Below, one piece after another: positions 29,315-56,719 of a stretch of 64,000 bases of DNA. Below the pieces are notes generated by a model. That model was not told where the DNA came from, did not search any database, and saw nothing but the letters and a program-made list of their open reading frames with translations. The stretch is taken from assembly GCA_964016885.1 (NCBI GenBank), contig OZ024742.1, positions 271,870,001 to 271,934,000 of the forward strand. Reading direction: 5' to 3'. The first letter of the stretch is position 1; the number at the start of each line of letters is the position of its first letter. Origin of the DNA: Eledone cirrhosa. Lineage: Eukaryota. Made by a program: the position numbers and the translations under genes.

Positions 29315-29429
29315 ACAGTTTTTCTGATGATTTGATTAAGCATACTTTGTATTTAAAATTGAGTGACACAACTTCAAGTGAATAGAAATTTTTAGACAAC
29401 TCAATCAATGAAACAATAGTTAATACTGT
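29315..29429 (+). ncRNA. Type I hammerhead ribozyme with 79-nt stem II (long-stem family, copy 1)
   Basis: ACAGTTTTT-CTGATGA(29324-30)-T TTGATT...AATCAA T-GAAAC(29410-14)-AATA-GTT-AATACTGT. Core intact. Confidence 0.75.
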
Positions 29430-29653
29430 AAATAAAACTCTTTTTGTACTATTGACCATGGTATTATTCACTCTTTCACTATATATAAATATATATATAT
29501 ATACACGAGTGTGTATGATTGTGTATAGAAGATTATATTAATAAAAGGTATTACAACTTTGTCTGATTTACTCGTTTTATTTACAATCCTTTAAAATTTA
29601 TAATGGTATTAGAATGAAATAGTATGGTAGAATATTAAATGTTAATTGTTAAT

Positions 29654-29692
29654 TGAACAAGTACTTTCATGCTTTCGCAATCTTCAGGTTCA
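29654..29692 (-). ncRNA. Minimal type I hammerhead ribozyme in a PLE 3' region
   Basis: Minus strand reads TGAAC-CTGAAGA-T TGC GAAA GCA T-GAAA-GTAC-TT-GTTCA. Perfect 5-bp stem I, GAAA-capped stem II, palindromic stem III (AAGTACTT), CUU site. Confidence 0.85.
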
Positions 29693-29994
29693 TATTGTGT
29701 GGTGACAGTCAAGTTTGCAATTTTCAACTGTAATGATATTGGTAAAATGTGGGCCTTATATACAGTGAAAAGTGTCCCCAGAATGCTAAATCTTGCAAAC
29801 TGTATTTCGACCAATCGGTGTGTAGTTTCACTGGATTACTAAAGCTGATTGGTTTAGGCGTCACGGTTGGTTGGACATATCTAACGACTACTAATTGACC
29901 CTATCCAAAGCATCAATTGTTTTGCTATTTTTAGAAATGATGAAAATAGCATTTTCTAGTAGACATCACCATCAATATCACTTTTATTATTCTT

Positions 29995-30027
<33 letters not shown>

Positions 30028-30069
30028 AGTGGTCGTAGTCATAGTCAAAGTAGGATTAATACCCCATTA

Positions 30070-30265
30070 TTATTGTTCATTTAGCTTGGGTTTGAATTTA
30101 TCAATAAAATTATTTTCTTTGATTTTTCTCTTGATTTCATTTGGGCTGTGTAATTTGTAGAATGGGAATATTATAAAAATTCCCTGATCACATGTTGCTA
30201 GATGGTTACTTAGGGGTATCTGACGGATATTTGGTTCTCTGATTTTCTGTCGGTGTACCCGTACA
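30070..30265 (-). pseudogene. PLE GIY-YIG endonuclease C-terminal fragment
   Basis: 'RVHRQKIREP...PLSNHLATC..IIFPFYKL....RKIKENNFIDKFKPKLN*', similar to the C-terminus of the 60.4-62.6 kb element. Confidence 0.85.
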
Positions 30266-31164
30266 TCCATATCACCAAGATGGGGCAGAAATATCTACAA
30301 ACATTACCAATTATCATGTCAGCCCATAAATCAATCTAGCATTTGCTGTTATTTATTCTTTTGGACCAAAACAATTATATCTACATATCTCACATTAGCA
30401 CCCATGATCTCTAACAGATGCACTTAATTCTAAGTACATTAGCTTATTACCCTTACACTCCTTGAATCTCTTATTTTCTCATTATTACTATTATGATCAA
30501 TGTACCCTATCCCTAATTATATTCATAATGTTCTCTATCTATTTACCATGCATATTTTATTGTTGATTTATTGTCTTAATTATACGTTATTTGTCATCGA
30601 AGTTGTGAAAACTAAACATCCATGATTCGAACTAACAATCCCAACATTTAAAATAAGCCACCTAAACCTTAAAATACTGATTCTACAATTTCACTTAATA
30701 CTAACTAATAACCATATATCTTTATACACTCACTCGATCAATATAACTAAGTTAATACAACGAAAATACTTATCTGTCAGACGATAAATCAATCTCCGGT
30801 TTATTGCTAGCGTGCCTTTAGACCCACAGCACACTTGTATATAGATCACTCATAATTGCACTTAAAGGGGTAGATTAAAAAAATCTGACTCTGGGTACAT
30901 TTTATTAGTTATCTCTTCATCCCTCAAAAAACTACGTCTAAGTAACCTATAGTAGATTTCACATGTCAACTTCATATATCTATATCATATCACTTCGGTT
31001 ACTATGCTTGTTTTATTATGTTATCATTATATTCTATTTCTCACTTATATTGATGTGTAATTTAACTATTCAGTATCTAGTTATTTTCTTATTGATATTA
31101 TTGTTCTGGTCTAATACCACTCCTCTATAAAAGCCATGCTTGTAGATTATCCTCATATTCGCTC

Positions 31165-31271
31165 GCTCTGATGAATTAACTGGTTATAAACAAAGTATTG
31201 GAGTTCGATTGACGCAACAACTAGCGATTAGCGAACTCTAGACCTAACAGATCAAAGAAACAAATGTCAGC
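31165..31271 (+). ncRNA. Type I hammerhead ribozyme with 82-nt stem II (long-stem family, copy 2)
   Basis: GCT-CTGATGA(31168-74)-[..CTGGTTA..GAGTTCG..CGC loop GCG..CGAACTC..TAACAG..]-GAAAC(31257-61)-AAAT-GTC-AGC. Canonical core and GUC site. Confidence 0.8.
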
Positions 31272-31624
31272 ACTGTGAATAAGGCCCTTATTGTACAGAC
31301 AACCATGTAACTCTTATCTCTTGAATTATATATATATATATACAGTTCAGTAGTAAAATAGAGATGGAGATAAGAGAGGAGAAGATAGATTGGTGAATTT
31401 GTTAGAAGCCAAAAGCGTAAAGGCATGTGCTCAATGTGCAATATGCAGTGGAAGGCAGGGCGATGTCTGGGTTCATGCAGAGATTAGGGGCAAAGAGCTG
31501 GAAATATTCAGTATTTAAGCAAAACGAAATCACAAATTTCACAAGGAAGACATTGTTTAAAGATTGTAAACATAGTTGCAGTTTATTGTAAGGAATGACG
31601 AGTGTAAATATATTTTAATGTAAG

Positions 31625-31666
<42 letters not shown>

Positions 31667-31932
31667 TAATAATAATAATGTTTTCTTTATTAACCACAAG
31701 GGTTTACATAAAGTAGACATTAAGGACAGTACATGACAATACAGGACGGTACAAATGGGCATTTCTGCGTGTAAAAAACAAAAACAGAGGATGTAACAAA
31801 AAAAAAAAACAATGACAAATTCTCCAATAGGGGGCAGACTTTGGAGGGACATTTGTGGAGAAAGCCCAGTAAAAGGCCACAGTGACCCTGACCACCAGAG
31901 CAAGTGCCCTCTCCCAGTTTTCCACCTTTAAT

Positions 31933-34900
31933 TTACAGACACATACTCAGAGAAGGCCCATTCATTCGGGCCATACTTGCTTCTCTCACCCATCTTTCAA
32001 CAAAATGCTGGGAAAAGAGCACTTCCCTCTCTACCCTGATTTTCCTTTTCAAATGAAATTTGAAAAAGTTAATCAGGGCATCACCGAAGAGGTAAGTGTT
32101 CGTCTTCAGCCCTTTCAAACGTGTCCACCATACTATCTCTTTCGCCATGGCCACCAGATAGATAAAAACTGCCTGCCCTTCCCGGCTAAGGGAAGAGGGC
32201 GGGGCAATCCTCACGATGGACTAAGATGATAGCTGGATCTGTCCTACACGTGACAGCAGGTGTTCGACATAAACCCACAAGTCAGCAATGCTCGGACACT
32301 GGACGAGTGCGTGTAGGACGGTTTCGTCGCCCTGCGCGCATCTCGGACATAGTCGGCTGAAGGCAACTCCATGCCTGTAGAGGTTATCCCGAACTGGCAA
32401 AGCTCCCCGGTAGCACTGCCAGGCCAGGGATTTCTGGAAGTTGTCCATTGGCCCCGGCCCGAAAGTCCTTCCGAAGAGATTGGCTAGTTGATTTTCGTCG
32501 ACGCCTATTGTTTCCCCAAGTACGTCGTCGCTCTTCCCCTCCACTAATCTTCTATAGAACGCCAAGGTGGAGTTTCCACCGATCACATTGCCCGATTGGT
32601 CGAGGGCTGTGAGCGCCTGAAGACATTCCAGTCTCCAAGCGCTCCCTCTCGGTCTTCGCTTGACCCAAACTGCAGCTCCCTCAAGGAGACGAGCTGGGGA
32701 AAGACGTGTCTAGCAAACGGCGACCACACCTGATCACCGTCGAGGAAGAGGTGGAGATGTCGTAGCCTGATCGCGTGTCTGCGCATCATCAGCAACGGCA
32801 GGCCCAGCTCTCCACGTAGCGGGTGTTGACAGCAGATGGACCGCCTGACCATCGGAGCGCGTCCCTTCCACAAAAAGCGAAAGAGCAAACGCTCCAGCGC
32901 AGTTAGGCGGGGCTTAGGGCAAGGTAATACGCTCAGGCGGTAGTAGATGACGGACGTGATGTACGCGTTAGCCACCTCCGCTCGACCTTTCAGGGATAGC
33001 TTCCTCTCGGCCCATTTCTGGGTGAGAGAAGCCACCCATCTCGTCACCTCGTCCCAGTTATTGTCCGTCTGGAGGTCTGGACCGAACCAGACCCCGAGCA
33101 ATTTAACCGGTCCGTCCGCCCAGCGCCCCACGACGCTGTTGGACGGCATCGACCTGCCTCTCCAGGTGCCGAGCTGCAGGCTCACTGACTTTTCCTGGTT
33201 GATCATTGCTCCTGTCACCGCTTCGTATTCTCTTAGTGTAGTGCCGATCGCCTCGATGTGTTTGGCGTTCGACACCACTACGGTGACAGCGTCGGCATAT
33301 GCTGACACGGATCTTCCGCATCCTAGTTCGCGCGGGACCCTCCTCAACGTCTCCAGTTTGTGCAGTAATGGCTCGAGAGTCAATACGTACAAGAGGGACC
33401 AGAGGGGACATGCTTGGCGGACCGAGCGCATGATGTTGAACGGTTCCGAAAGGTGACCGTTCACTCTCACCACAGAGCAGATGTCGCTATGCATGGCAGC
33501 GATCCAGCCTCTGAAGACGGGCCCAACGCCAGCCGCCCTCAGGACTGCCGCTAGGTAACGATGGTCGATCCTATCGAAAGCTTTCGACTGATCTAAATTG
33601 ATCAATAACCCACCCGCGCCAGGTTCCCTAGCTACCCTCTCTACGATGTATCGCCAGAGGTGGAGGTTGTCGTGGATGGATCTGACGGGAATGAGGCATG
33701 CCTGCGCTTCTCGCACCAGACCACCAACGACAAGCGCCAACCTCTTTGCTAGCACCTTGGCCAAAATCTTAAACTCTGTGTTTAGCAGAGTTATGGGCCT
33801 AAAATTATCTATGTTATCCCCCTTGTTCGGATCCTTTCTCAGCAGAAATTGGTTCTTGACCAATTCTTCAATGCAAACACGAAGGCTGCGGAATTCTCCC
33901 GTTCTGTGGCCAGTTGCAGTAGACGTCAGCCAACAGGCCTCCGAACAAGTCTGGCATCTGTACGTGAAGTTCATAGGGCCGACCATCTAAACCAGACGAT
34001 TTACGTTTTGTGCAGCTAGTCATTGCCTCCCGTACTTCAGCGGCTGTTATCGGCTATTAACAATTCTCCGCCTCAGTGGCCGAGTGCCGCGGCAATCCAT
34101 CGAGGTAGACACTAAAGTCCATCCCACGACCGGCCCGCCGCTGCACCAGAACAACTGAGCGAAGTGTCGCTGAAAAGCTTCACGCATTTGCCCGGAATCG
34201 AGTAGCATGCTCCCGTCGTGGTACACCAAAGACCGGATCGTCGCTTTGTTGTCACGATGCGCCACCGCCACTCGGGCCCATTGAACGGCTTTCGTCCCCT
34301 CGTGTCTGAGAGCACGCACCCTAGCTCTGACAACGCAGCCTTCGTGTTTGCATTGAAGAATTGGTCAAGGGCCAATTTCGCCGCAAGCACGTCGGTTGCG
34401 ATGCCTTTGCTAAGCGCCTCGTCTAATTTTCTAACTAATTCTCCCTCTCCTTTATTTTTCTCTATTGCTAAAGCCTTACTAAACCTAATGGACTCTATTC
34501 TAATCGCTCACTTCAGAGCAAATCACCACTTGTTGTTGACGATGTCCCCCGTCAACGCCCGCTTAAGTAGTTCGCTAATCTGGTCTCTGTAGGCCTTGCA
34601 CGCTGGTAAGGACTCTTTTAGTTTCCATTCGCCGGATCCTCGTCTATGAAGCCTATCTAAGTCAAGCACACAGATCACGAATTTGTGGTCCGTGTAGCTG
34701 ACTATCTTGAATTGTGGACAGCCTATGCTAGACCTATCCATTTCCCTACAAAATACTCTATCTAGATATGATCTGGATGATCCTATGCGATTTGTCCAAT
34801 TCCTCATTGGCTCATTCGGGAAATCCAGTCGGTACCTGTCAGACAGTTCAAAACGCCTGAGCAGGTTGGTGAGGCTCTTGCACCCTCCTCCCCAATCCGC

Positions 34901-35364
34901 TAATCCCACACAGTCCCAGCGTTCATCTAAGATCCCGTTCCAGTCGCCCACTAACACTAAAGAGTGGGACGTTCCAAGAAAGTTCTCCAGAGGCCGGAAG
35001 AAATCAGGACGCCCTGATCCTGTAAGGGCATAGACAGCCACTAGCCTGAAAGCTTGCTCGTCTCCGCTGGTCACGTCCAGCACCACCAACTTACCCTCTG
35101 GGTCCAGGAAGATGGCCCGTATGGCGAGATCCAAACCTCTCCGAAAAAGCACAGCAACTCCTCCCCCCGATCCCGGACGGCTGGGAGATGCGTACACACG
35201 TAGCCGCCGAAGATCGGTGCGAAGGCCCGTGCTTCGGATATTCTGGTCTCGTTGATGGCCACTACATCTATGTTTAGTGACCTGAGGTCGTTGAGAAGGT
35301 GGCCCTGCTTCCATGACGACCCCAAGCCACGCGCATTTATGCTGCCTATTCTGAGTGAGGTCAT
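31933..35364 (-). pseudogene. LINE ORF2: AP endonuclease, reverse transcriptase and zinc finger, with several frameshifts
   Basis: SINARGL, INET, GGGVAVL, LVGDWN, SYLDRV, TDHK (APE); NFRPITLLNTEFKILAK, LDQSKAFDRI, VRQACPL, AYADAV (RT); CPRC....ET..HAL..C. Confidence 0.93.
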
Positions 35365-35500
35365 GTTGAAATGGAGTGTAAAAGATGGGAAAGACCACTT
35401 ACCTTACTTCTCGTAGAGGAAGGATGGTGTGTTCATCTTTTTCACTTCTTGTGGCCTCCTCCGGAAGGATCGCCTCATAAATCCTCCTGGAGAGTGTTTG

Positions 35501-37375
35501 TCAGAAGTCTCCGATGTCTTTGGGGAATTTTTGTTTTAGTGTCGTGTACGTTTTCTCTGTGATGCGAGTGATTTGTATGTGTGAAGGTGGTGTGAACTTT
35601 TGGGTTGTGTAGTCTTTTTCTGTGATGATGGTATTGTGTTGCATGTAGTGTAATAATTGGTTGTTGTTCAAATTTAATGCTGTGTAGTGTGTATCGCTTT
35701 GGTTGTTTTGCTTTGTTTGCGTTTGTTGTGGGTTTGTTTCTGTTACGATTTTTGGTGACTTTTGTGGTGTGTGTGATGCTGGTGTTGGGTTTAATGATGG
35801 TGATGGTGTTGGTGTTTGGGTTGATGGGGTTGGTGATGCTAGTGTGGATGGTGGCATAACTGTCTTAACTTTCTTGTTTGCTAATTTATTTGTTTCCCTC
35901 TGTATTTTGTTTTTGGAGGGGGAGGGAAGAGAATTTTTTCTTTTTTGGTTTATTCTTTTCTTTTTCCCTGATACCGTTTCCCACTCCTCGTCGTCACAAT
36001 CAGCCTCCAGTTGCAATGAGCCGGGGAGTGGAAAATCCTCCACAGGCGTTGGTTTTGGTTGTGGCGTGGTGGATGGTGTAGGCGCTGGCGCTAGTTCTGG
36101 CGCGTTGGGTGGTGGTCGTGTTGGTTTTGCTACTGTTGCTGGGGTTGTTGCTGCTACAGTTGCTTCTGCTGTTGCTGCTACATTTGTTGCTGCTATTTCT
36201 GCTGCTGGTGGTGTTGATGGTTGAGTCACTGGGGTGGGTAAGAGAGGTGGGCTCAACCTTTTAGCCTGCGGGCAAAAAGCCCTTAGGTGGGTTCCTTCAC
36301 CAACAACGTCACACCTAGGTCTTCTGCCTTCGACGATTAGGGTGAGGTGGCTGCCGTCAGTGAGGTCTATTACTTCTGGGATCTCTTGGATCAGGAGCTC
36401 CATCCCAGATCCGGACCAGTTCTCCTGCTTTTCTTTTGCTATTTCTATTATTTTGGTGGTGGCCTCGATGCCGGCGAGGACGGCAGCCATTAGCCAGGGA
36501 ATTTCGATGGCCGGTGGAACGTGGGTCACCCTGATCTTCACAAGTCTCTGGCCACAATAGCTTGGGATGAGTGTGAAGTCGTCACTTCTTAATGGGGCCA
36601 TAGAGTGTTCTCTGTCCTCCAGTGGTGTTTCAAAGAACACGTCCACGGTTCCCTACTTCTACCCACGTCTGATGTGGGTCTTTTTTGCCCACACATGTCC
36701 CAAAGCTTTTTGGATTTGGGACTCAGATGCCCGTTCCACTCGGCGTGATTTTATGTTTATTGTCCGATAAGACACGGTGCATAGGCGACATTGCTCCATT
36801 TTATTAGGTGTGGGGGGGGGGCTGACTCTGTACCCATCTTCCTTTACCATTCCTTTGGCTTCGTCTAATTCTTCCTGAGTTACCTGGATCGCTTCGCACG
36901 TTTTTGCTACTCTGGCAAAACTCAGGGTAGTTTTCTTAATTTCATTGTTGCTGCTGTTGTTATCGTTATTTTTGCTATTGTTAATTTTAGTTTCAGCTGT
37001 GGTCGTGCTGGCATTAGTTGTGTTCGGTGTGGAAGTGTTCATTTTGGTTGAATTGATTTCGATATCATGAGTTAATTTTTTTTCTTTTGTTTCTGTTGTC
37101 GTTGTGGTGGTGGTGGGGATGGTGGTTGTCGCGGTGGTGCTGGTGAGGGTGGTGGGAGTCGCGGTGGTGGTGGTGGTGGTGGCGGCTTTAACACTTGCAG
37201 TCATTGGTAATGGCGGGAAATGAACATATGCCTGAGACAAATTTAAAATATCGCTACCGCTTACAATTCCGGTGTTGGCAAACGTAGCAATATTTACAAT
37301 GTTGGTGTCGGTGTGAAGTGTTGGATTGTGAGGAAGGAGTGAATCTGAGTCATCCATTATTTTTAAAGAAAACAT
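35501..37375 (-). pseudogene. LINE ORF1, split by a frameshift near 36650
   Basis: Two consecutive ORFs (37375-36659, 36646-35501) upstream of ORF2. Degenerate knuckle 'GRRPRCDVVGEGTHLRAFCP', Thr/Pro-rich tracts; homologues at 3.1-3.6 kb and 41.4-42.8 kb. Confidence 0.8.
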
Positions 37376-37572
37376 TTTTTGATTGATAATTATAAAAAGT
37401 TAAATTTTGGGCTCAAGGCCCGAATATTTTTGAGTGTCCTTTTCAGAAATCATTGTATGTGCACTTATATATAGTTAACAATAACAATTTTCCATAAATG
37501 GCAATTTTAAATAACTGAAAATAACAAACCTTTGCGGAGCTCACGATGATACGATTTACTACGTAGGTCGCA

Positions 37573-37585
37573 AATAATAATAATG

Positions 37586-37645
<60 letters not shown>
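37573..37645. repeat. (TAA)n microsatellite
   Basis: Directly visible. Confidence 0.95.
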
Positions 37646-37646
<1 letters not shown>

Positions 37647-37649
37647 CAA

Positions 37650-38446
37650 TGAGAAAGAGCAGCCTCCATGAAAATTCCCTTCATAATAACTTCTTTGAGA
37701 AAACTGAATTCAGAGATCCGCAGACATGGAACTGGTTGAAAAGAGGAGACCTTAAAAAGGCTACAGAATGAATGCTAATGGCTGCGCAAGAGCAGGCCCT
37801 CAACACGAAGTGGTTGAAACACCATATTTACAAGGAGGAGGCTAGCCCACTGTGCAGGATCTGTGGAGACAGAGAGGAGACTGTGGCTCACATTGTATCC
37901 GAGTTTAAACACCTAGCCCAGACTCACTATAAAGGCTGGAGACATGATGTGACGAGCAGGGTGATCCACTGGCACCTATGCAAAGTAAACAATTTACCAC
38001 ATACTGAGAAGTGGTATCACCATTAGCCAGAGTCGGTGATAGAAAACGATCAGGTGGAGGTGCTTTGTGATTTTAGGATACAGACGGATAAGAAACTGGA
38101 ACACAATAGATCTGACCTGGTGGTTTCGGACAAGGAAAAAAGATCGTGCCTGATTGTGGATGTGGCCTGCCCATTCGACACGAGAGTGCAAGAGAAGGAG
38201 AGGGAGAAAATTAACCGATACCAGGACTTAAAGTGGGAGGTAAAAAGGATTTGCAACTGCCATGAAGTCAAAGTGCACTAGGTACTATCTCAAACGTTTC
38301 CAGAGATGGTTAAAGAAAATTGGCCCCACCACGATTTTTGGAACCCTCCGATACGTCCTGAATATCTGAGGCTGCAGGTAGTGGCTTGATATTCATTTCA
38401 ACAAACTTTCCAGTTAACTAACATCAATGACTGAGACTCAAACAAC

Positions 38447-38447
<1 letters not shown>
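37650..38447 (+). mobile_element. 3' fragment of an R4/Dong-like RLE LINE bounded by (TAA)n on both sides
   Basis: WLKRGDLKKATE, AAQEQALNT, CRICG..EETVAHIVS, RHD, DF.IQTDK..HNRSDLVV, IVDVACP, EKINRYQDL. Confidence 0.92.
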
Positions 38448-38477
<30 letters not shown>

Positions 38478-38478
<1 letters not shown>

Positions 38479-38575
38479 TTTCTTTATTGGCCACAAGGGC
38501 TGACTTCAAGAAAAACATTACAGACGGCACAGAACGGTACAGGACGGTACGATGTGGGTTTTGTGCGTGTAAATA
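38478..38575 (-). mobile_element. Isolated 3' UTR stub of the Tx1-like family
   Basis: TTTCTTTATTGGCCACAAGGG..TACAGGACGGTAC..GCGTGTAAA matches 31683-31775; also abuts (TAA)n. Confidence 0.75.
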
Positions 38576-38639
38576 TTTGTATTATTTATATAAGAAAAGA
38601 ACAAAAAGGACATAGAAACATATATATAAATGATAAAAG

Positions 38640-40620
38640 ATTAGATTACAAATATTAGCTTACAAAAAAAACATTCGATAGTTTTCCACACAATTGGATT
38701 GAAAAGTGTTTAGAGATTTTCAAAATGTCTCCCTTTGTCAGGAGGTTCCTGTCATTCAGTATGAAAACATGGAAAACAACACGCCTTTTAAATAGTGAAA
38801 ACAAATCACTGGAAGCTGTAGAAGATAATATTACTTGTGGAATATTTCAGGGTGACACATTATCACCGCTTTTATTCTGCGTCTCACTTATACCATTAAG
38901 TAAAATGTTCAATGAAACACATGTATATAATGTCTATGACAAAACCGTTAATCACTTGTTCTACATGGATGACCTGAAACTATTTGCAAAACATGATGAG
39001 CAATTGCAAGAGCTATTATCCACTCTGAAGCAGTTCAGTGATGATATTAAAATGGAGTTTGGACTAGATAAATGCGCCAAAGCCACGTTCACCAGAGGAA
39101 AGCTGCTGAGAAGTTCAGACATTATTATTGATCGGGGGAATGAAATACGAGAACTTAATCAAGAGGAAACATATAAATATCTATGTGTTTGTGAAGGAGA
39201 CGGAATCAGGCACTCGACAATGAGGGAAAAGATAAGGAAGGAATGTTACTGCAGTGTAAAAGCAATCTTAAGAACGGAGTTGAATGCAAGGAATAGGATC
39301 AATGCCATAAACACACTTGCCATACCAGTAGTAACTGAGAATTTCAATGTCGTCAACTGGTCAAGCACAGAGATCCGTAGCTTCGATACAAAATTTAGAA
39401 AATTCTTAACCATGCAGAGAATGCATCACTCTAAGCCAGATAGAGATAGAATATATATCCCTAAGAAAGACGGATGACATGGATTAATCCAATTAGATAT
39501 TTCTTTGAAGACTGCAACAATTGGATTATCTACATACCTAGGGGAGGCATATGATTGGATGATCAAACTCGTTTAGAAACATGAAATCATCAAAAGATTC
39601 TCCAAGATACAATAATGAACTACACATTTCAGAAGATCCCTTTACTGCTGAAATGAAATGGCAGAAAAAGTAAAGCATGTAAAAGTAACTGCAAAAGGAA
39701 ACACTGCTACAGAAACTGGCTAAGAAATGGCAAGAGAATCCTCTGTATGGAAAATACCAAGAAAGAGCTAACAATCCTGATGTTGTCAAAACTTTAACCC
39801 ATCAGTAGTTGGCATCCTATGGACTGAAAGCGGAGACTGAAGGATTGATTATGTCAGTACAAGATCAGTGTCTGCCAACAAACAATTATCAAGCCAACAT
39901 AATAAAAAGTGGATGCATCCCATTATGCCGTGTATGTAAAAAAACCCAGAGACCATTGATCATATAATTTCAATGTGCAGTCCTATAGCTCCAACCGAAT
40001 ACCTAAAGAGGCACGACAGTGCTGCACAATACAATCACTGGGTAATGTGTAAACATTTTGAGCTTCCCCATCAAAAGAATTGGTGGGACCATCAACCACC
40101 TCCCGTACTTGATAAAGATCACATCTCAATCTTGTGGAACGTTAGCATCGAATCAGATCGGAAAATAGATGCAAATAAACCTGATATAATACTGAAGGAC
40201 TTTAAAAAGCGGGCATGAATCCTAATTGATATGTCTGTTCCAATAGACAAGAATGTATCTATAAAAACATTTGAAAAATTGAGCAAGTATAAAGAACTGG
40301 AGATCGTTATTGGAAAATGTGGAAGTTGAGAACTAAAACAATACCAGTGGTTGTAGGCGCTCCTTGTATTACACCTAAGGGGTCTAATGAATACTTATCC
40401 ATAATCCCAGGAAACCATGTAAAGAAGAAAAACAAAACATCGCATTAATAGGAACTGCCCCTATACTAAGGAAGATTCTGTCAATATAATTACATCACAA
40501 GTCTAAGGATGCATGTCTGTGTATGTGTGTTCTTTCTTGAACATGGCGGATCTTGTTGTCTCTTGAGTTCATTGTATGTGACTTGCTCATAACTCGTATG
40601 AACATAAAGCAAGATCAATA
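38640..40620 (+). mobile_element. 5'-truncated R4/Dong-like LINE (second subfamily), RT plus RLE
   Basis: GIFQGDTLSPLLFC, NHLFYMDDLKLFA, MEFGLDKCAK, YKYL, AINTLAIPV, QDQCLPT, CRVC, RHD, NKPDIIL. Confidence 0.93.
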
Positions 40621-40631: not shown

Positions 40632-41242
40632 ATTGTTTCTAGTTTTATCGAGCAAATACCCAGTACATTACTGGTACTTTATTTTATCGACCCCGTAAGG
40701 ATGAAAGGCAAAGTTAACATCGGCGGGATTTGACTCAGATCGTAAAGGGCCGTAACTCTTTGCTAAACTCATGGCGACCAATCCTCTACCAATACTACCA
40801 ATCCACAAAATAAAATAATAATTGTTTCTACTTTTGGCACAAGGCCAGCAAATACCCAGTGCATTACTGGTACTTTCTTTTATCGACCCCGTAAGGATGA
40901 AAGACAAAGTTAACCTCGGCGGGATTTGAACTCAGAATGGCAAGGGCCGTAACTCTATGCATCAGCGCATGGCGTCCGACTGCCAATCTGCCGATACTAC
41001 CATCCACCGCCATAAAATAATAATAATGGTTTCTTATATAGGCACAAGGCCAGCAATTTGGGGCAAGAAGGAAGTCAATTAAATCGACACCAGTGTGTAA
41101 CTGGTACTTTATTTTATCGACCTCGTAAGGATGAAAGACAAAGTTAACCTCGGCGGAATATGAACTCAAATCATAAAGGGAAGTAACTCTATGATGCAAA
41201 GCATGGCGTCCGACCCTCTACCGGTAATGCCAATCCACCGCC
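40632..41242 (-). mobile_element. Three head-to-tail SINE copies (~40632-40807, 40820-41011, 41027-41242)
   Basis: The unit CTGGTACTTT..TATCGACC..GTAAGGATGAAAG..AAAGTTAAC occurs three times, separated by short AAT tracts. Confidence 0.93.
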
Positions 41243-45815: not shown

Positions 45816-45914
45816 TCCTGGTTAAATAAAATATAGGATTGATATGAATTTTGACAATTGAAGATGTTTAATCATTATGTGCCTAGCTTGGCATAGGCAG
45901 CTACTGATATGAAG

Positions 45915-46310
45915 ACACGGGATTTGCTCTCGTCCAACATCCAGTACCAACAACATACCACCCGCATCGAGAAGGATCGTTCGGGACTTGAGATTGAAGT
46001 CTTTAAGGAAAAAGATTGCTACAACATATATTTTCACAGGATACAAATGGTTGTTGTCAAAAATAGTTGTGAAAGCAAGCTTTTCTGAAATTCTTTTCTT
46101 ACCACCAGCCACGACACTTATGTCCCGTGGTAATGTTCATCCAAATTGGTCCCAGAGAATGTCGGTTGATCTGATCGTCTCATTTATTATGTCAAAGTTC
46201 CCAATGTACCAAATGTCCAATTGCTCCAGTAGACTCGGTCTTTAGTGTTTGGTAGATGTGTGGATCCGTCAGTAATCCCTCCAGAAGATTTCCGCTGGTT
46301 TTTCAAGCCA
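45915..46310 (-). pseudogene. Small Tx1-like LINE fragment (APE region)
   Basis: 'VAIFFLKDFNLKSRTILLDAGGMLLVLDV' parallels 'VAVLFRRGLDLAIRAIFLDPEGKLVVLDV'. The extent beyond ~46110 is uncertain. Confidence 0.55.
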
Positions 46311-46329
46311 ATCGTTTGTGTATGTCTGT

Positions 46330-46466
46330 TATTATTTTGTCAACCTCGTAAGGATGAATGACAAAGCCAACCTCAGCGTGATTTGAACTCAGAGCGTAAA
46401 AAGATGTAACTCTCTATCGCGAAACAATGGTGTCCGAGACTCCACTGATACTACTAATCCACCAGC
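46330..46466 (-). mobile_element. tRNA-derived SINE, diverged
   Basis: GTAAGGATGAA..CAAAG..AACCTCAGCG..ATTTGAACTCAGA..AATCCACC. Confidence 0.8.
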
Positions 46467-49400
46467 CTCAATAATATGTTAATTCCGATAGTAACTGATA
46501 AGATTATGGCAATGGCGACAAGGACGGCAATAATTATGATAATAACGATGACGAATATAATGGTGATGATGATGATGATGACGAAAACAATCATCATCAT
46601 CATCATCATTATCATAATTGTCACCATCCTCGTTTTCATCAATATTATTCCTGTATATACTACAATTTAAACTTTCGATAATCAGAATATATTTAATTAA
46701 AGAAAACAGAAACATGCCTGTTCTTATTTTATCTTGTACATCGTTACTCCTCAATTTGGAAATATAACGCTATGAAGAATCAGGAAACAAGAATTATACG
46801 AAACTTCATATTAATATACAGCCTGGCAATTATGTTTTTACTGAAATCTGAATACCTGTATTGATATCCTGTAATGTAGCAAGCTATGCTATTCTTATAG
46901 GCGCTTAATAGATTCTGCGATTACTAATTTATACATGTGTAATCGACAGAAAATATATGAAAAGCCACATCAAACACCGCATTATTTGGAAACGAGATTT
47001 GATGCGTGAATAAATACATTAAAACATTTAAACCTCCCGGTCACTAAAACGTGCCTCTCGTTGCTCTTTATTTTCTAGCATTAATCCACTGTAATGCACC
47101 GTTTGTGGAAGGGCATCGTTGATACTTATCTCCAGAACATTTTATAGACCATGGGAGAAGATAGTGCAGATCTGGATACTGCATTGTTATTGTTCGTGAG
47201 ATAATCAGTGAATATTAATAAATTAAAAGTCATCGAAAACTCACGTTATAAGGAAGAATGTTATAACAAAACTCGCGTCTTTGATTGAATAATCGCAACA
47301 GAGGCGGATTCCAGTAAAGAAGCCTATCGTTCGAGGCAAACTGGGTGAAGGATGACGAGTGCCACCATATCTAAAATAAAAATTATATTTTGAAGATGTT
47401 CACTAGTATGGTGGGCTCCATTTCATGGTTTCTGCAACAATTTGCCTTTAGTAAATTATAAATATTAACTAGGTTACAGCAGTTATACCTAGTTAAAATG
47501 TGTCTTACAATATTATTATATCATTAAGAACAAATGTCTTTCTTTATGTATTTTTTAATATATTTATCCATTTCACCGGTGTTGGGCGGTTTCATGGACA
47601 AATTGTTCCTGCATACTGATCCCGTCTATATTTCATCTGTCTAGATCTGCATTATCGTTTAAAAGACGTTTAGCTATGATATAACAAGATTTGTCTGTTA
47701 TTTCCTGTCAATCAAGTACTCACACAAAGAAATGCTACCAGATATTTTTTCTGCTAAATTGTGAAGAGACAATTGTCGACGATATATAAGTAGAATTGTG
47801 AAAAGTGAAAGTATTATAATTAGATATGTCGAACACAACAAAGTATATGTGCTGTAAATTGCTATGAATGAGTGAGCGATAAGTCTTTAAATGTAAAGTA
47901 CTAATTAAATATTAATTACAATAACTTAATAATGATGCTTTTACTACTTAACAGGAGAGAGATATTCATGGGAAAAACTTTGATCCTAATTCTTTTCGTC
48001 ATAAGTTTTCATTCCACTTTTGTAAATATATAAACACCGATAAATTACTGATTTCTTTTTATGGAAACGGTGTTTCAGAAATATTTATTTTTTAATCAAT
48101 ACTGTTTCATGCGTCAACCAACGTTTACTTTTTGTTATTTTCTTACTAATGTAGCAACTATTGTGATGCGAATCGCGCCTTAGGTCAGATTAATATGTAC
48201 TGATTCGGATACGGAGTCACTTGTCAATGCTGCTAAAATAGTTTTTCGTCTACGTTTCATTTGATTTCCTGTTGGCTACTTACTGCAAATATTATAAACA
48301 TATTAAACCTAACTCATATTATTAGTCATAATATTATATATATACCTTTTTCTGGAAACAGTTTAACAGCTTACTAGATTGCTTTTTTTTTTAGCATTTT
48401 AAGATATTATTCAATCATAAATATAAATGTTTAAAGCAAACAAGAGAGCTTTTAATCAGAGAGAATTTTGATTGTACAATATTTGTTTCATGATATCGTA
48501 ACACAATCTTAAACATTTCCTCAAATAGATTTAGAAGATTATAACACACAGGTTAAGCCAAGTAGGCAGAATGTGTTGGAAACAAGAACCTGACGGAAAC
48601 GTTGTTTATATTATTAATAAAGAGCCAAACTATAATGGTATTAATACGGATGTTGGATTAGCTATGTCACGATAAGTCTAATAAATTGTCTTGTAGTATT
48701 ACCACCTGCTATTTAAATTATGGGTCCACCTTCGATGGCATTTGTGTTTATTTGCATCTTCTCTTGCCTTCAGCAAGACACCATGAGCAGAGAAGATTCT
48801 CTGTGCGGAATTGATGATCATCCACAAAGAATGAAAATATAGAAAAATTATCAAGTAAATATTTGTTTATGCATGCTCTTCAGAGATGAGTTTTCTTGTC
48901 GAGGAATCATGATCAAGACTGGAGAACGGAAGACAAGGAATCGAAACTACACCGACCAATAGTGTACAGACAATTCTCTGCTCAGTGGGAACATTTTGTA
49001 ACTACAATTGAATGAAGATTTATATGTGAAATAATAGTGTAAATGATATAAACAAATTCAAATTCAAGCAAACATCTATTATTGAAATATTGTCATTATT
49101 TTAGAGAGACCAAATGTAGGCAGAAAAGAGGTCGGCGTAGGCTGATGGCTGACACTCGACATATCAGTAACAAACAATAAATTATTAAAAAATGTATAGT
49201 CTACAGCAAAAGTATCATTATCATCATCATCATCATCATTATCACCACCACCACCACCACCGCCATTATCTTCATCACCATCCCCATCATCACCATCATC
49301 CTTATTATCAACAGCAACAACAAGGACACTATCAGCAACATTTTTCTTCACTAAAGCTGAAACACTAAACAACGTTCCGCAAATTCCCGGTTGTCCAGAA

Positions 49401-51469
49401 GGAGAATATTAAGTTAATAGAGTTCAGGGACAAGTATAATGAGATAAAAACAGCTAAGTGAATTCCTAAGGAAAGCAAAAGTAGACAGACTCCTAGTACA
49501 TCAAGCGGCCAAGCTAAGCTCTAGAAAATATTCCTATATGTAGGAAAATGCCCAAGTAAAAGAGTATTCAGACACGCACCTGGAACCCACCGAAGAAAGG
49601 ACTATAAAACTTCCCATTACTAAAACATAGTACCACAAAATCAGTTTAAGTGCCCACTCCCGTTCCTTCTCTCAATGACCATGCTATCTCCTCATTGTCA
49701 TATTAACCGACATACCATCAAACACTGACATACCAGGCTGGAATGCATATTCTTTCAGAAATTATGGAAAGGGAACTTATGGAAACATGCATCAACTACA
49801 TCCATCCATTCCATAGTGGCTTCGAGATTTAAACACTTTTGATGTACAAGCAGGCGCTGCGGTTAATACACCTGTACAAGTCCCTCAGTTAGGCAACGGC
49901 GATAACAACGAAAGAAAGCAAAGCCGAAAACGTCCGAGCAACTTACACCTGATATGTATTTCTAAATCTTGTCTCCTTGAACGAGCAATAATCATCGATC
50001 ACGTGCAGACACATTCTGTTCACGAGGCTTCTAAAATACTGCCAGGGCATCACAGCTTTTTACCAGGTAAACAACATGATGAGCAGATATAAAATAATGC
50101 TGGCCTCTTATAGAAGAGTTGTTGGAGGTATGAGTGAGGGTATCCCGCCAGTGGATCTGCGTGTTAATAAAGGCAGATATTAAGCATTGACTATATCTAG
50201 GAAAATAGACTGGCTTTAATATAGGTATATAGAATTTTGAGTTATATGTTTTGAAAGAGAATCAGAAAAACTCACATCTCCAGTTGTAAATACTGAACTT
50301 TGAACTATATACAAAGTCGAAACCATATAGAACATTGCGACAATAAGCCTAGGACGGATTGCCAAAGCGTCTAGACGAAATGAGAAACATAATGCACCAC
50401 CCGTTAAACACGAAACTAAGAAGGTATAAATAAATCAGCATATGGAACGAAACAGCTAAATAGAAAATAATAGATATGTAAGCAGTTCTATGATTAACAT
50501 TTTGTTTGTTTGCCAAAATTTAATGATTCCACACATTGAAAAAGAAAATAACTAAGTATTATAACAAAGTGTTATAGTTGACTGGCTTCCAGGATAAAAC
50601 TCATTACTTTCTCGACTTTATGTAGATGGAAACAAATTTGACCGTGAAAAGATTTTGGCTCAATATCGTAAAAATAAGTCACCGGTAAAATTACGTTCGA
50701 TTTTTAGTATTTATTCAGACTCCTCTTGTTTCATTCAATCCATCTTTCCTTCCAAAATAATAATAAAACAATAATGTTATATGAAAACCTAGATGGAGTA
50801 TATGTTCGTCCGAAACTACGGAAACATTGATATAACATTCCAAAACATAAATGCTTCATAAGAAAAACCTGTGATATATAATGTGTGATCAAATATATTT
50901 CAAGTTGAGTGACTTACATTTCTCTATCAACGTAGTTTAACTGTATGAAAATTGGGTTTACTTGTAATCTTTAAGAGCATTATGTACAAATTTAGCTGAA
51001 TTTAATTTCAACTTTTATGTGTGTGACCGCTGCAAATAGAAACAGATACATATAACTATTAATTTGATTACGGTTTCAGGTTCAATGGATATATAATATA
51101 ACATTATTGATGAACTCAGACAGGTGTGGATGATAAAGATGCACTACAAGTTACAAAGGCACACCTATATTTCCTTTAGTATTTGAAAGGCCAAGATTAA
51201 AACGAAAATTATGGCTGCCCTAGAGACAATCAGCTTTCATCAATATATACCTTTCTCTGAAGAATTTTATTAGTTACTGTGTAATACTGGAAATCAAATT
51301 GCCGCATTCACACTAATTAATTAAGTTTTCATATATAGAACTATAAGCTAAATATTATGTCCATTTGCTACTAATCCACATGGTCTAGAAACTGTCACGG
51401 TGACTTCGGACTGCAGGAATTTGTGTATTATGTATAAGTAAATATGTATCGTGTTCTCCACCTTCTTCT

Positions 51470-52990
51470 TCTTCATTCTGATTTTGCTGAAGCTGGGGCA
51501 TTACTGCATCAGCTCCTACAACTCTGGCATTTAATCCAGCATCCTGCCTCCCATCGCTCGGGATACTTGAAATTCTCCACCTGCTTCAGTGGAAATTCAT
51601 TCACATGCAGATTACAATGCGCAGAAGTCCTTGGGAGTTGTTCACGTTACTCAGCATTGATATTCATTCCAGCCATGCAGCACTCGGCATTAAACTTATC
51701 AATTGCAAGTCAGAGATCACCTTTTGTACAGTTAAGTAACGCCATGTCACCTGCAAATTCCAGCCGACTGATTGTACATGCGTCAGTCGTTATACCAATT
51801 CCAACCCGAGAACGCATGTCTATCCTTTTAAATGAAAATTATGAGTAGGAGAGGTGACAGTACGCATACTTGGTCGCATCCTATTCCTTTATTGAACAGT
51901 TTCAATTTGGCACCATTTATCAGAAATACTCGGACATTTGTATAGAGACGCCAGAACAACAAGCTCACCATCGATCCAATACTCTTGTAGAACTTTCCAT
52001 AGCATGTTCCGAGGAACGCGATTATATGCTTTTTCGATGTCTACCATAAAAAAAACTATGACTCTTTGCAATACACAAAAGATTTCTCGAATATCTGCTG
52101 CATTGTGAATAGCTGGTCGGTTGTGCTGTGAATGATGAGAAAACTGCACTGTTCATCAGCTAACGTGGACTCAACAATCTCCCTATTCTATTTGCCAGAT
52201 ACTTAGTGTATACGTTACCGGGGGGGGGGGGCTTAACAATGTGATCCCTGTAAGCTGTAAGTGAAACAATCTTTCTTGCCTCTCTTTTCGAAATTTTGGA
52301 TTATCACTCCCGATTGCCATTGCTTACGTGTCTTTTCAGAGATCCAAGCCGATTGGCAAACATCAGTCAGCCAAAGAATATCTTTTCTACGTAATGTTTT
52401 AACATTTCGGGCCGTATTTCATCTACCCTAGTTGCATTGCCACATTTGAGCTCGTTAAATACTTTTGTTACCTCAACCTCATAGAGATTAGTTACCACAC
52501 CCAGATGCGCCTCCTGCAAATCAGAAGATGCTGCTGTGATCGTTTTTACGCATCAGCAAAGTTTTCTCTGCATCTCATGAGATGTATCTCTCTGAAGAGA
52601 GGTGACCCTAAATGCATTTGTTTTAACAGGGATAGAAGATGACTTCTTATTACGATGTCGCTGGATGGTCTGGAAGAACACTACATTTCTTGACCTTAAG
52701 TCGGAATCCAACTAATCCCCAAACTCCTCTCATGTCTTAACTTTGGATGCTTTTACTCCCTCTACTGAGAATGTTCGTGCCTATATGTTCCGCAAATGCG
52801 AAAAAGTATAACTTACTTCCAAGCGAAGCTTTGTAGGCCTCTGTTTTTGCTTAAATGACATCTTTGACCACTTGATTGACCTAAGGAGTCATCTTGCGAC
52901 ATGGGGCCACACCAAGCCTATTTCGGTCGCAGCATTTAACATCTGAAGCAGAAACAGCGGAGCTGAAGAATACCAACCTGTCCCGACATC
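51470..52990 (-). mobile_element. Decayed RTE-clade LINE (RT region)
   Basis: 'FMVDIEKAYNRVPRNMLWKVLQEYWIDGEL..LASLY', upstream 'A.G.DEIRPEMLK', downstream 'RLEFAGDMALL..DLQ..DKF..EC..AGM' and 'QVENFKYP'. Confidence 0.85.
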
Positions 52991-54739
52991 CTCTGTTTTT
53001 GAATTTGAATGCAGTACGATATTAATTAGCACAATATGATATTTATTCGCAAGAACGAAGATTTATAAATCTGATATTTAAATCAGCATATGATTATGTG
53101 ACATTGATAATTTCAGTACTGTAACGTTTTCGTTGAAAGACACTCTATTAATACAAATGTGTGTTCATGAAATTTATGACTTCCTTTAAATGGATCACGT
53201 TACATTCTTAATTCGAGAATCTCAGTGAAATGACGAAAGAAAAAAAAAACAAAAAAAAACGTCACGTTTTTGGAGACGCTGATGTTAAAAACATTTTTTT
53301 AAATGTGTTTACCTATCATGAATTCCTGGCAAATTGAAGATTATTGAATTTCTCAAATTAAAGAAAAAAAAATGAATAATTGCCGTTTGACAAACGGGTG
53401 TTTATTTAAGGTAACATTAATCAAAAATGAAGCCCGAAAATAGCAAATAAAGATGGTCGCTTTGCCGTATCTGAACCTCTGGTAAATGCAGCCAAGTCAT
53501 AATCAAAATTCTCCATTTTTCATTAAAGATTATAGATTTCAAGTAGCGGGTTATATTCAATTTCTTTATGTATGCAGTGTGTGACAGTATTAAATACCAA
53601 GTTTAAAACTGGCGGTGATTCCTCAGATTTAATAAAGCACTGGGTGCAATATTTTTTTTAATTCATGGTATATATTTATATTTTGATATTACGTCCAACT
53701 GGATGCGACATGACCTTTGAAAAATCAATAATATACGAGAGGCGTATGTACTGGATTTTCTCGAATATTCCACTTACTCAAACGTTTCGATGTTTGTTTT
53801 AATTTATGCCAACTTAATTTTACTTAATAAATCATATGAATATATGAACACATATATGTCTACGTTCAGCTTTATTCATGGACAGATGTGTTATTAGTTA
53901 CCAAGGTGTTCAAGAAAGCATCAATTACAATGCCGCGTGGATTTACTGAAAGAGAGCTTATTTCGTCAGTCGTAATCATTTTTTTAATTTATATCTATAA
54001 TGTACTTTAGACAAATTAGAAACATACTCATATACTTCAACAAATATTACATTAGATTTAAAATGGAATATATTCCTTCAGTAATAGAGTACCACATTGA
54101 AGTGTATGATCTATTTTAGTTGATCTTCTGAAACATTTAATGTTTTCAGTTACTGTCAAGATGTATATTTAAATAGATAAAGCTCTTAATAAAGGTATGT
54201 GCATATTAATGGCTTTCTGTTGGCTCTTTCAGATGCCGGTTCTAAGAAATATCGGGGAAAACACCGTAAATTAGATATATGTTTAATTTAGTATAAATGT
54301 AACTTACATAAATCACTCTTCCACTTGACTCTATGTTGACACAAAACTATATGTCACTGCCCTTGACGATGCTGAAAAAATATCAGTATCAGCCGCAGCA
54401 ACTGGGGGCATCTTACGACGAATAGTGCTTTCAGTCGCTTAACGCCAGTGTGACAGATATAATCTCTGTCCTGATGATACTGTTGTCTCGAAAAATACTT
54501 TTATTATTTGATGTCCAGGTAGTGGATGACATGATCACTATAAAACTAGAAGAAATAATGCTCACTCTGAAATCCAATGCATATAGTGGTTATAACATTT
54601 TCCAATTCTGTAAATTGGTCGCCGTCATTGATAATAAAGATGAATGGATCTGGCAATTTTGCCAATAATAGAAATAAACGATACATATTTAAATGATATG
54701 TAATTAAAATAGTTGAAGCGAGAGATTGTGACACTGGTG

Positions 54740-55435
54740 GAGGTATATTTTACAATGTTTCCTTGGTAAATTCCCCAGCAAAGTATATGAACCAAGAAAT
54801 TGGGTAAAGGTACACTATGATGTAGTTTCTAGTACATATGTATGTATGTATTTTCTTCTGGTGTGTATGTATGTATGTTCTTCTGATGTTTGGTTTCGTC
54901 TGAATCTTTTATTAAGCACCTTTCTCTCATCTACCTTCTTCAGGTATCGCCGTTTTTCGCTAACAGCTCTCAATTCTTGCTTGAGGATGACCAGCTTATA
55001 TTGAAGAATTCTGGTTCTACTGATACCACACATCGTCTCCATTTCATCTTTCACTCTTTGTTGGTGAGGAGTGAGGTTTTTTTGTGTTTGTTTGCATATA
55101 AGGAGCATTGTAACATATCCTTTTGTTTTCGTAGGTCAGCAATCTTTTTTTCTATTTTAGTTATATATGATGGTATTTTTGGTCGTGTTTTCGTTCTTGT
55201 TAATATTTCTGCTATCACCAAAATAATGCTTCACTGTCGTTGCTAAGGCATATAATCACGCGTTGATTTGTCAAAATGTTAGGGTTTTTATCCGTCGTAA
55301 ATATTCACCCCCTATTTCGTCAATAACACGTAATATTTCATAATTTGTATTTTTATTAAATATGGTCGTTTTAATACGTTCAGCAAAAGAGATATTTGTA
55401 CATGAGTTAATTTCTCTCTGGAAGTTTACGTATGT
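54740..55435 (-). pseudogene. Fragment of an R4/Dong-like LINE N-terminal (pre-RT) region
   Basis: 'KLVILKQELRAVSEKRRYLKKVDERKVLNKRFRRNQ' resembles the K..L.A...R..RY......N..F..NQ segment of R4-clade ORFs. Confidence 0.6.
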
Positions 55436-55443
55436 AAGTATTT

Positions 55444-55630
55444 GTGTATGTATGTATGTATGTATGTATGTATGTATGTATGTATGTATGTATGTATGCA
55501 TGTATGTATGTATGTATGTATGTATGTATGTATGTAGGTATATATATAAATACATACATACATACATACATACATACATACATACATACATACATACATA
55601 CATACATACATACATACGTACATACATACA
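55444..55630. repeat. Inverted tetranucleotide arrays (TATG)n...(CATA)n
   Basis: Directly visible. Confidence 0.95.
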
Positions 55631-55780
55631 GGCATAATTCTAGGAGAAGGAAAACTCTGATCTAACACCTGCAACCCTGATGGTATCCAATACAATTGTG
55701 GCTTGTTTGCATAATTGCAACCGAAACGAATGTTATTATTTATGTTCGAAAAACTCAGATTACATGTATTATACATATAT

Positions 55781-56000
55781 ACTAGCAGTTTATCCCGGCG
55801 TTGCACGGGTAAAAAAACATTGGTAATAGCACCTCCAGTGTGAAACGTTTATTTGTGGCTGCCTGTTAAAAGCTCACGAAAATATATCGACAGGTGTATC
55901 CCGGTACTGCACGGGTAAGAACATTGGTAATAGCACCTCCAATGAGAAACGTTTATTTGGGGGTGCCTGGTAAAAACTAACGAAAATATACCGACAGGAA
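55781..56000 (-). mobile_element. Helitron-type 3' terminus with a ~106-bp tandem duplication that includes the hairpin
   Basis: ACTAGCAGTTTATCCCGGCGTTGCACGGG; a second CCCGGTACTGCACGGG..ACATTGGTAATAGCACCTCCA unit starts at ~55900. Confidence 0.7.
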
Positions 56001-56613
56001 ACTTGTTTTATTTGGAGAAAATTAAGAAGTTGAAAGTACAGTTTAGCTGTCTACATGTATTGTTTATAGAAATATTGTTGAGCCCCTCTTTTCATACTCC
56101 TCTGTTGTGGCCGTTTGGAGTAAATGGGAAAGAGAAAGTGACAGGTTTAGTTGGCAGAAGGTTCCAGTGTCAGAGCAGTAAGGCGTAGGCTACTTACCTC
56201 AAACGTTCATTCGCACTCTTTCCACCAAGTTACTCTTTCTCTCTATCCCTCTCAGTTGTTCGGTATTATTAAGAAAAGGTGTAGCAGAGAATCCCGCGTG
56301 AACTAACAGCTCGGGAGGAAACTACTTACCTCGAAGATTCATTCGCCATCGTTCTTGTCAATGCTCCGTTTACCTCGTATTTATTGGTCTACAGTTAGAT
56401 GAATGGCGCACAAAGGGTTAATGTTTATTGGCAAGCAGTTTTTTTTATTAATAAAAGACGGGTTAAAGTGACCTACAATGTATCTGTGTGTATATATATA
56501 TTAATCTTTTAAAGAATTACATCAGTTTTTTCTCCCTCTATTTTTATTATTAATATTATTATTGATGCTGTAATTTGAATTTGTAGATTTGCCGGTTATA
56601 TGTTTTTTGTAAT

Positions 56614-56719
56614 GTCTCTGATGTACTGATTGACCTAGCATCGTAACTAAAATTGAGTGGCACTGCTTCTAGTGTTCAGCAATTTTTAGACAACTTAATC
56701 AGAGAAACAATTGTTAGAC
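56614..56719 (+). ncRNA. Type I hammerhead with 79-nt stem II (long-stem family, copy 3; A9 changed to U)
   Basis: GTCT-CTGATGT(56618-24)-A CTGATTGA..AAAATTG..GCACT GCTTCT AGTGT..CAATTTT..TTAATCAG A-GAAAC(56704-08)-AATT-GTT-AGAC. Confidence 0.75.

Follow-up and report, generated by a model that had tools for sequence, protein, structure and literature searches.

Hammerhead ribozymes (HHRs) of Penelope-like elements (PLEs) are already known. The minimal forms, as excerpted from PMC4209133, have a helix II of 7-8 bp with a small loop 2, a short helix I, an extra base after position 9 and a short palindromic helix III predicted to make them act as dimers; as dimers they cleave weakly. In the Hydra clade of PLEs, the published inserts at stem II measure 12-26 nucleotides (nt) in 26 of 26 rows, ~23 nt in the case of Hydra-1_oBim (Craig et al. 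2021, PMC8557442, File S2). Here we analyse a 64,000-nt stretch of the Eledone cirrhosa genome (GenBank assembly GCA_964016885.1, contig OZ024742.1, positions 271,870,001 to 271,934,000 of the forward strand), called the window below, which contains three hammerheads, c1, c2 and c3, at the 3' ends of what are almost certainly Hydra-clade PLEs. Inserts in these elements measure 77-87 nt and are arranged in three tiers, which makes them about three times as long as even the longest insert in the 26 published rows of that clade. It is this oversized structured stem II, which is real and abundant, that is new.

The HHRs described here share with the published Hydra-clade HHRs the clade, the 3' position, the type I topology and the targeting of (TA)n, as well as the CUGANGAN core, often with a U.U at the base of stem II, and the palindromic stem III. 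The elements themselves are larger, ~3.9 kb with a 3' untranslated region (3'UTR) of ~1 kb as against less than 3 kb for published Hydra elements (PMC8557442). With the minimal PLE HHRs they have in common the short helix I, the 7-8-bp helix II, the extra base after position 9 and the short palindromic helix III, but where the excerpted source gives a small loop 2 they carry a 60-nt structured arm, so that the 77-87-nt insert departs from the small loop 2 of the dimer type. Poseidon PAc (Frangieh et al. 2024, PMC11167929, excerpts) resembles them in having an HHR upstream of two preferred 3' ends and inserted copies that span the uncut site; it belongs to a different clade, its tail is 30-40 nt long compared with ~190 nt here, and its open reading frame (ORF) starts within the HHR, whereas here the ORF starts ~290 nt after the cut. 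Non-LTR retrozymes (PMC7229834; bioRxiv 10.64898/2026.07.22.740005; excerpts of both) likewise carry type I HHRs in animal repeats and are kin of the pseudo-long terminal repeats (pLTRs) of PLEs. They are, however, non-coding tandems, whereas c1-c3 are the ends of coding elements; a different long-stem lineage of this genome, lineage B, fits retrozymes better. The longest published PLE stem II in our comparison, that of PLE-X1_sMoe from Selaginella (PMC8557442, File S2), has 9 bp and a 35-nt loop (~54 nt) and is shorter than the inserts here; it represents a single plant family without endonuclease (EN), flagged as deviating, for which no covariation was shown. Large insertions in hammerhead stems have a precedent in Clec2 (PMC6765202, excerpts). 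In the literature searched, we found no description of an 80-100-nt structured stem II domain in PLE hammerheads; Lunse et al. 2017, which lies outside this comparison, could bear on novelty.

A loose scan of both strands finds only three HHR motifs in the window, all on the + strand, where a first-pass annotation of this DNA had placed hammerheads with 79-, 82- and 79-nt inserts. A family model, in whose training set the copies were included, scores them at 117-123 bits compared with 16.7 for the next match in the window. Copy c1 is a 5'-truncated PLE 3' end (29213..29482, +) consisting of the end of the 3'UTR, the HHR and ~60 nt downstream, followed by (TA)n; over 270 nt it is 92.6% identical to the longer copy L092, which has reverse transcriptase (RT) and EN upstream. 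Its hammerhead (29324..29421, +) comprises CUGAUGA at 29324-29330, a 79-nt stem II closed by U.U at 29331-29409, GAAAC at 29410-29414 and GTT at 29419-29421, with the predicted cut 3' of 29421 and a palindrome disrupted by a private change. Directly 3' of the predicted cut lies an AATAAA (29431..29436, +), judged to be poly(A)-signal-like from its sequence and conservation, whose A residues are invariant or nearly invariant across lineages. Copy c3 (56526..56781, +) is also a 5'-truncated 3' end, running into (TA)n/(TG)n, with 92% identity over 258 nt to L096, which has a C-terminal EN upstream. In its hammerhead (56618..56715, +), CUGAUGU (an A9U change) is followed by a 79-nt stem II at 56625-56703, GAAAC at 56704-56708 and GTT at 56713-56715; the predicted cut is 3' of 56715, the ACAATTGT palindrome is intact, and AATAAA lies at 56724-56729 (+).

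Copy c2 is the longest of the three (30259..31329, +), with ~0.9 kb of 3'UTR, the HHR and 60 nt before (TA)n; its ~1,070 nt of element are 92-93% identical to the full-length copy L093. Its hammerhead (31168..31268, +) has the CTGATGA core at 31168-31174, an 82-nt stem II at 31175-31256, GAAAC at 31257-31261 and GTC at 31266-31268, with the predicted cut 3' of 31268. From the alignment and its pair counts, the three-tier stem II (31176..31255, +) is resolved into P2a (~31176-31183/31248-31255), a large internal loop, P2b (~31195-31207/31232-31243) with an invariant bulged A, a small internal loop, and P2c (~31212-31215/31224-31227); in c2-type rows the P2a pairing is shifted one column out of register. 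The stretch 31150-31290, earlier proposed as a cleavage substrate, is a poor choice because its palindrome and a basal pair are broken.

Genome searches with each copy show that the window does not hold one three-copy family, as had been supposed: each copy represents a different high-copy subfamily. With each copy as the query, 42-44 matches were obtained from 40 scored candidates out of 2,207-2,552 first-look candidates; these figures are not copy numbers. The full-length matches among the candidates scored are ~87-96% identical to the query. In coverage profiles, the copies are truncated at staggered 5' positions and have two alternative 3' ends: measured from the predicted cut, copies end at +58 to +67 in 41 of 87 cases, at +222 to +312 in 43 and elsewhere in 3, and they nearly always run into (TA)n, in line with the (TA)n noted earlier after the common tail. 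In each of the three subfamilies, longer copies have a GIY-YIG EN ~0.8-1.3 kb upstream of the HHR, and an ORF for RT with a C-terminal GIY-YIG EN precedes the HHR in L093 (c2), L092 (c1) and L094-L096 (c3), interrupted by stops or frameshifts in every case. L093 is an entire but decayed element, with a near-identical duplicate in L098. In this single full-length copy examined, a ~180-nt tail is repeated at the 5' end, from ~+56, and the ORF contains RWK, DKT, GIYRDD, CxCx5C, YIGST, CxxC and CxH motifs. The Hydra clade is defined by RWK, DKT, a CxCx5C linker, CxxC and CxH in the EN, and insertion into (TA)n (PMC8557442); all of these motifs are present in L093 and the copies are flanked by (TA)n. 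By eye, the L093 ORF lines up with Hydra-1_Obim and Hydra-1_Ajap from the supplement of that paper. Together with the PLE hallmarks found here (5' truncation, pLTR/tail and inverted partner copies), the motifs and this by-eye alignment to reference proteins make the assignment to Hydra-clade PLEs close to certain. The linked RT/EN ORF and a conserved palindrome thus bear out the earlier view that this is a hammerhead of PLE terminal repeats whose stem III is palindromic.

The same first-pass annotation had offered a non-autonomous, retrozyme-like element as an alternative. All three window copies are indeed short and non-coding, and lineage B does make ~990-nt non-coding tandems, as a non-autonomous retrozyme or a family resembling short interspersed nuclear elements (SINEs) would. 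This identity is very improbable for c1-c3, because longer copies extend into a full RT plus GIY-YIG ORF. The 5' truncation is staggered into the 3'UTR and the EN/RT ORF, the coverage profiles contain no head-to-tail array of short HHR units for c1-c3, where non-LTR retrozymes are non-coding tandems with one HHR per unit, and the full-length copy L093 contradicts it directly.

Core and palindrome were scored in 30 loci found by BLAST for each subfamily. The type I HHR core (C3 U4 G5 A6 N7 G8 A9...G12 A13 A14, A15.1-U16.1, H17) is intact in the majority of copies of all three; the nine key bases are intact in 27/30 copies of c1, 26/30 of c2 and 24/30 of c3, the main departures being A9U in 18/30 c3 copies and U4C in 6/30 c1 copies. 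Stems I, II and III surround the core with the open end at stem I, which is the type I topology. The two base pairs of stem III are invariant, and P2a is 84-90% paired. Of the 90 copies, 79 have an unbroken ACAATTGT palindrome in stem III (27/30 for c1, 25/30 for c2 and 27/30 for c3); the energy of its self-duplex is -6.4 kcal/mol. Its majority loop is AATT in every subfamily; the AATA and AAAT loops of the window, earlier taken as family variation, occur in only 1 and 3 of 30 rows and are therefore decay. Copies differ from the majority by 1-4%, alike in core, insert and tail, as would be expected if they were no longer under selection once inserted. Selection, if any, would have acted on master elements.

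To judge abundance, we counted exact core-spacer-GAAACAATTGTH matches in this 3.0-Gb, microsatellite-rich genome, a pattern that misses mutated and A9U copies and includes some double counts. Spacers of 66-95 nt give 4,225 matches compared with 3 in the reversed control, so that the long-insert core is not a chance occurrence. Spacers of 8-36, 37-65 and 96-125 nt give 8,050, 1,673 and 1,963 matches, and over the spacer classes the reversed controls give 3-5. From 263 fetched loci, 186 distinct motifs were obtained and grouped into 40 clusters. The kin of the window copies, group A, comprise 108 motifs with inserts of 76-84 nt in 32 lineages, with a mean identity of 63% among representatives; shorter deletion variants and one 87-nt variant were excluded from this set.

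In group A, the large internal loop of stem II separates an 8-bp basal helix (P2a) from a 12-bp middle helix with a bulged A (P2b), and a small loop lies between the latter and the 4-bp apical helix (P2c). In an alignment of 35 rows, 85.6% of cells are paired, compared with 77.5+-0.6 after shuffling (0/500) and 29-41% when the partners are shifted, and changes on both sides occur at 16 of 24 stem II pairs. Since the shuffle control ignores kinship, we also simulated substitutions along the tree while keeping column rates. Against this null, the untouched alignment of 32 lineages has a paired fraction of 0.842 compared with 0.628+-0.034 (0/150), and 7.6 same-branch compensatory events compared with 1.05+-1.11 (0/150). 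A one-column register fix in 8 rows raises pairing to 0.861 and events to 10-11, and the outcome is similar with a tree built without stem II. The compensatory changes reported earlier in the basal, middle and apical tiers and in stem I are real alignment columns: for example, the basal pair 26-105 is UA18/AU6/CG5, the middle pairs 53-86 and 56-83 are AU15/GC13/GU4 and CG17/UA13, the apical pair 64-75 is GC16/AU14/GU4, and the stem I pair 15-120 is CG19/UA12/UG3. G.U cells outnumber A.C cells by 91 to 33, which favours the sense RNA as the folded strand, and the sense strand folds better than the antisense in 25/32. Support is good for the basal helix and moderate for the two distal tiers; that both the basal and the middle tier, at least, are under selection is very probable.

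The reading we favour, and consider somewhat better than an even bet as a whole, is that the window copies are dead remnants, namely the 5'-truncated 3' ends, of autonomous PLEs of the Hydra clade whose ~80-nt stem II is kept paired, and whose HHR would probably cleave as a dimer joined through the palindrome and assisted by protein, the arm being the likely site at which an element protein binds. In a transcript that reads through a tandem or pLTR arrangement, P2a (~8 bp) would fold as the usual longer PLE helix II, with the former loop 2 enlarged into the P2b/P2c arm, and two ribozymes would pair via ACAAUUGU. Across the 35 rows, conservation of unpaired arm positions (the bulged A, the loop T/A, AGC and TAGAC) is complete or at least 90%, a pattern that speaks for a specific contact. 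With its bulged A (GUA/GAC) and its A.G internal loop, the arm would suit contact with a protein or a tertiary contact. We offer as a guess that the arm is a handle bound by the ORF product; that it has a specific partner at all is a candidate proposal that we rate a little short of even. After cleavage, the arm would lie at the 3' terminus of the upstream RNA, which would have lost the AAUAAA located ~8-15 nt downstream of the cut, as the excerpted account of Clec2 likewise describes (PMC6765202). Reverse transcription would begin on uncut RNA, at +60 or +250 relative to the predicted cut. Because inserted copies span the cut site, the template would be uncut or re-ligated RNA, and a start downstream of the cut implies that the ribozyme likely processes or regulates transcripts and does not define element ends. 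In Poseidon PAc, according to the excerpts of PMC11167929, reverse transcription starts at two internal sites on uncut RNA, and the HHR cleaves only with protein present and is dispensable for insertion.

Several results weigh against the protein-assisted dimer with a selected arm. An all-pairs covariation test with a tree null, similar to R-scape, yields no significant pair (best E 3-6 over 8,256 pairs); the covariation claimed earlier for stem II thus stands as pairing in excess of the tree-aware null, but not at the level of any single pair. The same-branch events fall mainly in P2a (5.6-7.4, compared with 1-2.6 in P2b and 1 in P2c), default RNAalifold returns just 7 pairs, and only 14/32 inserts reach z<=-2. 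The strand asymmetry is weak at the level of pairs, with G.U in 18 and A.C in 16. The helices were partly drawn from the alignment on which they were tested, though they were first proposed from the three window copies. Of the 32 group A lineages, 20 are single decayed copies, c3 often has A9U, and position 10.1-11.1 is often mismatched. Lineages with an 11-12-nt stem II outnumber the long-stem ones (the 8,050 short-spacer matches), so that the arm is dispensable for spread. Finally, 5' junctions do not pile up at the predicted cut: they start at +1 in 2/22 loci, and an offset control shows them scattered from -18 to +7. A search for 5' ends at the cut gave 5 matches compared with 740 in intact context, the five being 2 true +1 starts, 2 mutated whole motifs and 1 inversion junction; the corresponding search for c1/c3 gave 0 matches with a pattern that was probably badly chosen. 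In L313 and L314, ~60-nt insertions extend from the exact predicted cut to the main 3' end, between (TA)n; such insertions are no commoner than those at neighbouring offsets.

The arm might instead make an RNA-only tertiary contact, within the ribozyme or across the dimer, that replaces the loop 1-loop 2 interaction and allows efficient protein-free cleavage. Natural HHRs use loop-loop or pseudoknot contacts (PMC3088659, excerpts), and ~8 bp separate the core from the large internal loop, which is adjacent to a conserved A-rich stretch on the 3' side of stem I. The 5' strand of that loop is, however, the most variable part, and a scan of the arm and flanks for pseudoknots and alternative helices found none covarying, at a threshold (4 consecutive pairs, at least 80%) that P2b and P2c also fail and in a procedure blind to non-canonical contacts. 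The tertiary role suggested by the first-pass annotation thus gained nothing from the helix scan, and we consider the RNA-only contact improbable.

Long stems are not confined to group A. Inserts of other lineages measure 57-63, 82, 90, 94-98 and 100 nt: L232-L243 have 57-63 nt, L206 has 82 nt, L106/L109 have 90 nt, L244/L269/L271 have 94-98 nt and L258 has 100 nt; a further 90-nt example with the palindrome ACATATGT lies on the minus strand at L264:2031-2173. In the stretches fetched, lineages C and D could be tied to Hydra-type ENs, and no parent element turned up for lineages E, F, G and H. Lineage C is sister to A (support 99/98) in a tree built from the ENs of this genome only. With a model of the full motif, lineage C reaches 48-49 bits and lineage G 40-41, and short-stem motifs score no higher than 35. 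Of 17 related metagenome loci, 7 carry an HHR on the sense strand (three identical inserts of 25 nt and others of 13, 24, 44 and 46 nt), and 2 further matches, one of them doubtful, are antisense. The Hydra-like metagenome elements at L302:2004 and L303:1465 have a 44-46-nt, two-tier stem II of intermediate size. Because other lineages and metagenome loci carry enlarged inserts, stem II expansion is, to judge from these sequences, a tendency of the clade that is not confined to this genome.

This diversity bears on another explanation, namely that the arm is a tolerated passenger: loop 2 would have been expanded by the fold-back or template-switch errors typical of PLE reverse transcription, the arm would have no partner and no job, and selection would need only a self-folding insert so that helix II and the core form. 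The distal part of helix II tolerates insertions, as aptazyme engineering illustrates. None of sixteen other-lineage inserts (44-100 nt, two of them metagenomic) matches the sequence profile of the group A insert, lineages with a short stem thrive, inverted 5' copies are common near these elements, and the independent compensatory events lie mostly in the basal helix, all of which would suit a passenger. The conserved unpaired positions of the arm tell against it, as does a length of 77-83 nt in the sampled lineages, partly forced by the 76-84-nt selection. In addition, many G.U pairs and asymmetric loops persist that arm-to-arm copying would erase, and a short TCG..AGCG..TAG motif is common to lineages C, G and group A. 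On balance, we regard the passenger as unlikely, though well above the RNA-only contact. At about the same level we place a broader version of the protein-binding arm, in which Hydra-clade PLEs would repeatedly have grown a stem II domain (44-100 nt; hairpins or a three-way junction), also present on a ~990-nt non-coding tandem, through which their own RT/EN would license cleavage or select RNA.

The non-coding tandem is lineage B. It forms ~990-nt non-coding partial tandems with one HHR per unit (L264:4276, 5267 and 6255; also L260, L262, L246 and L266-L268) and supplies most of the listed 96-125-nt spacer matches. For its 94-97-nt stem II, the predicted fold is a three-way junction (z -7.9 and -3.8), with 96% of cells paired and changes on both sides in 2/30 pairs. 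No linked EN was found in 19 upstream stretches; an EN 0.9 kb upstream of the repeat L267 was rejected as linked, a long microsatellite lying between the two. In its sequence organisation, lineage B looks like a large retrozyme.

These observations matter in two respects. The HHRs of PLEs cut poorly in vitro and were dispensable for insertion in the sole reconstituted system (PMC4209133 and PMC11167929, excerpts). Where a lineage retains a folded 60-nt arm whose loop bases are invariant, that arm is a module that can be deleted, and short-stem relatives in the same genome serve as natural controls. As regards annotation, in which the value would mainly lie if the arm were only a tolerated passenger, a descriptor with a 7-17-nt spacer (PMC8557442) would skip up to ~7,800 matches with 37-125-nt inserts, some of them double counts or chance, so that some PLEs scored as lacking an HHR may hide one. 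The earlier statement that size-limited searches miss this family holds for such a descriptor, whose spacer the inserts exceed, but draws no support from Rfam. Four long-stem loci have no Rfam match, but four short-stem HHR control loci were missed as well, so that these misses are uninformative about stem size; in the window, Rfam gave 133 matches at E<=1, nearly all of them microsatellite noise and none to a hammerhead family.

The window also contains remains of other elements. At 60724-61957 (-) lie broken pieces of another PLE-like RT/linker with FDVINLY and GTAMG motifs, unmatched by Hydra queries; Pfam has no match for the two pieces. Other Hydra-type EN/RT fragments, with 36-39% identity, occur at 58376-58576 (+), 10407-10616 (-) and 7510-7770 (-). 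A near-perfect 202-bp fold-back without spacer, flanked by (TA)n, occupies 16511-16914 and has a similar sequence in L228; from its structure, it is probably a 5'-inverted retroelement end. A decayed long interspersed nuclear element (LINE) with APE endonuclease and RT lies at 32221-36652 (-), and a second RT fragment at 38659-39477 (+). A high-copy short repeat of ~100 nt is found at 63679-63772, 57739-57833, 40816-40912, 28621-28715, 17889-17985 and 20335-20429, and is also inserted, at ATT-rich sites, in the 3'UTRs of many PLE copies.

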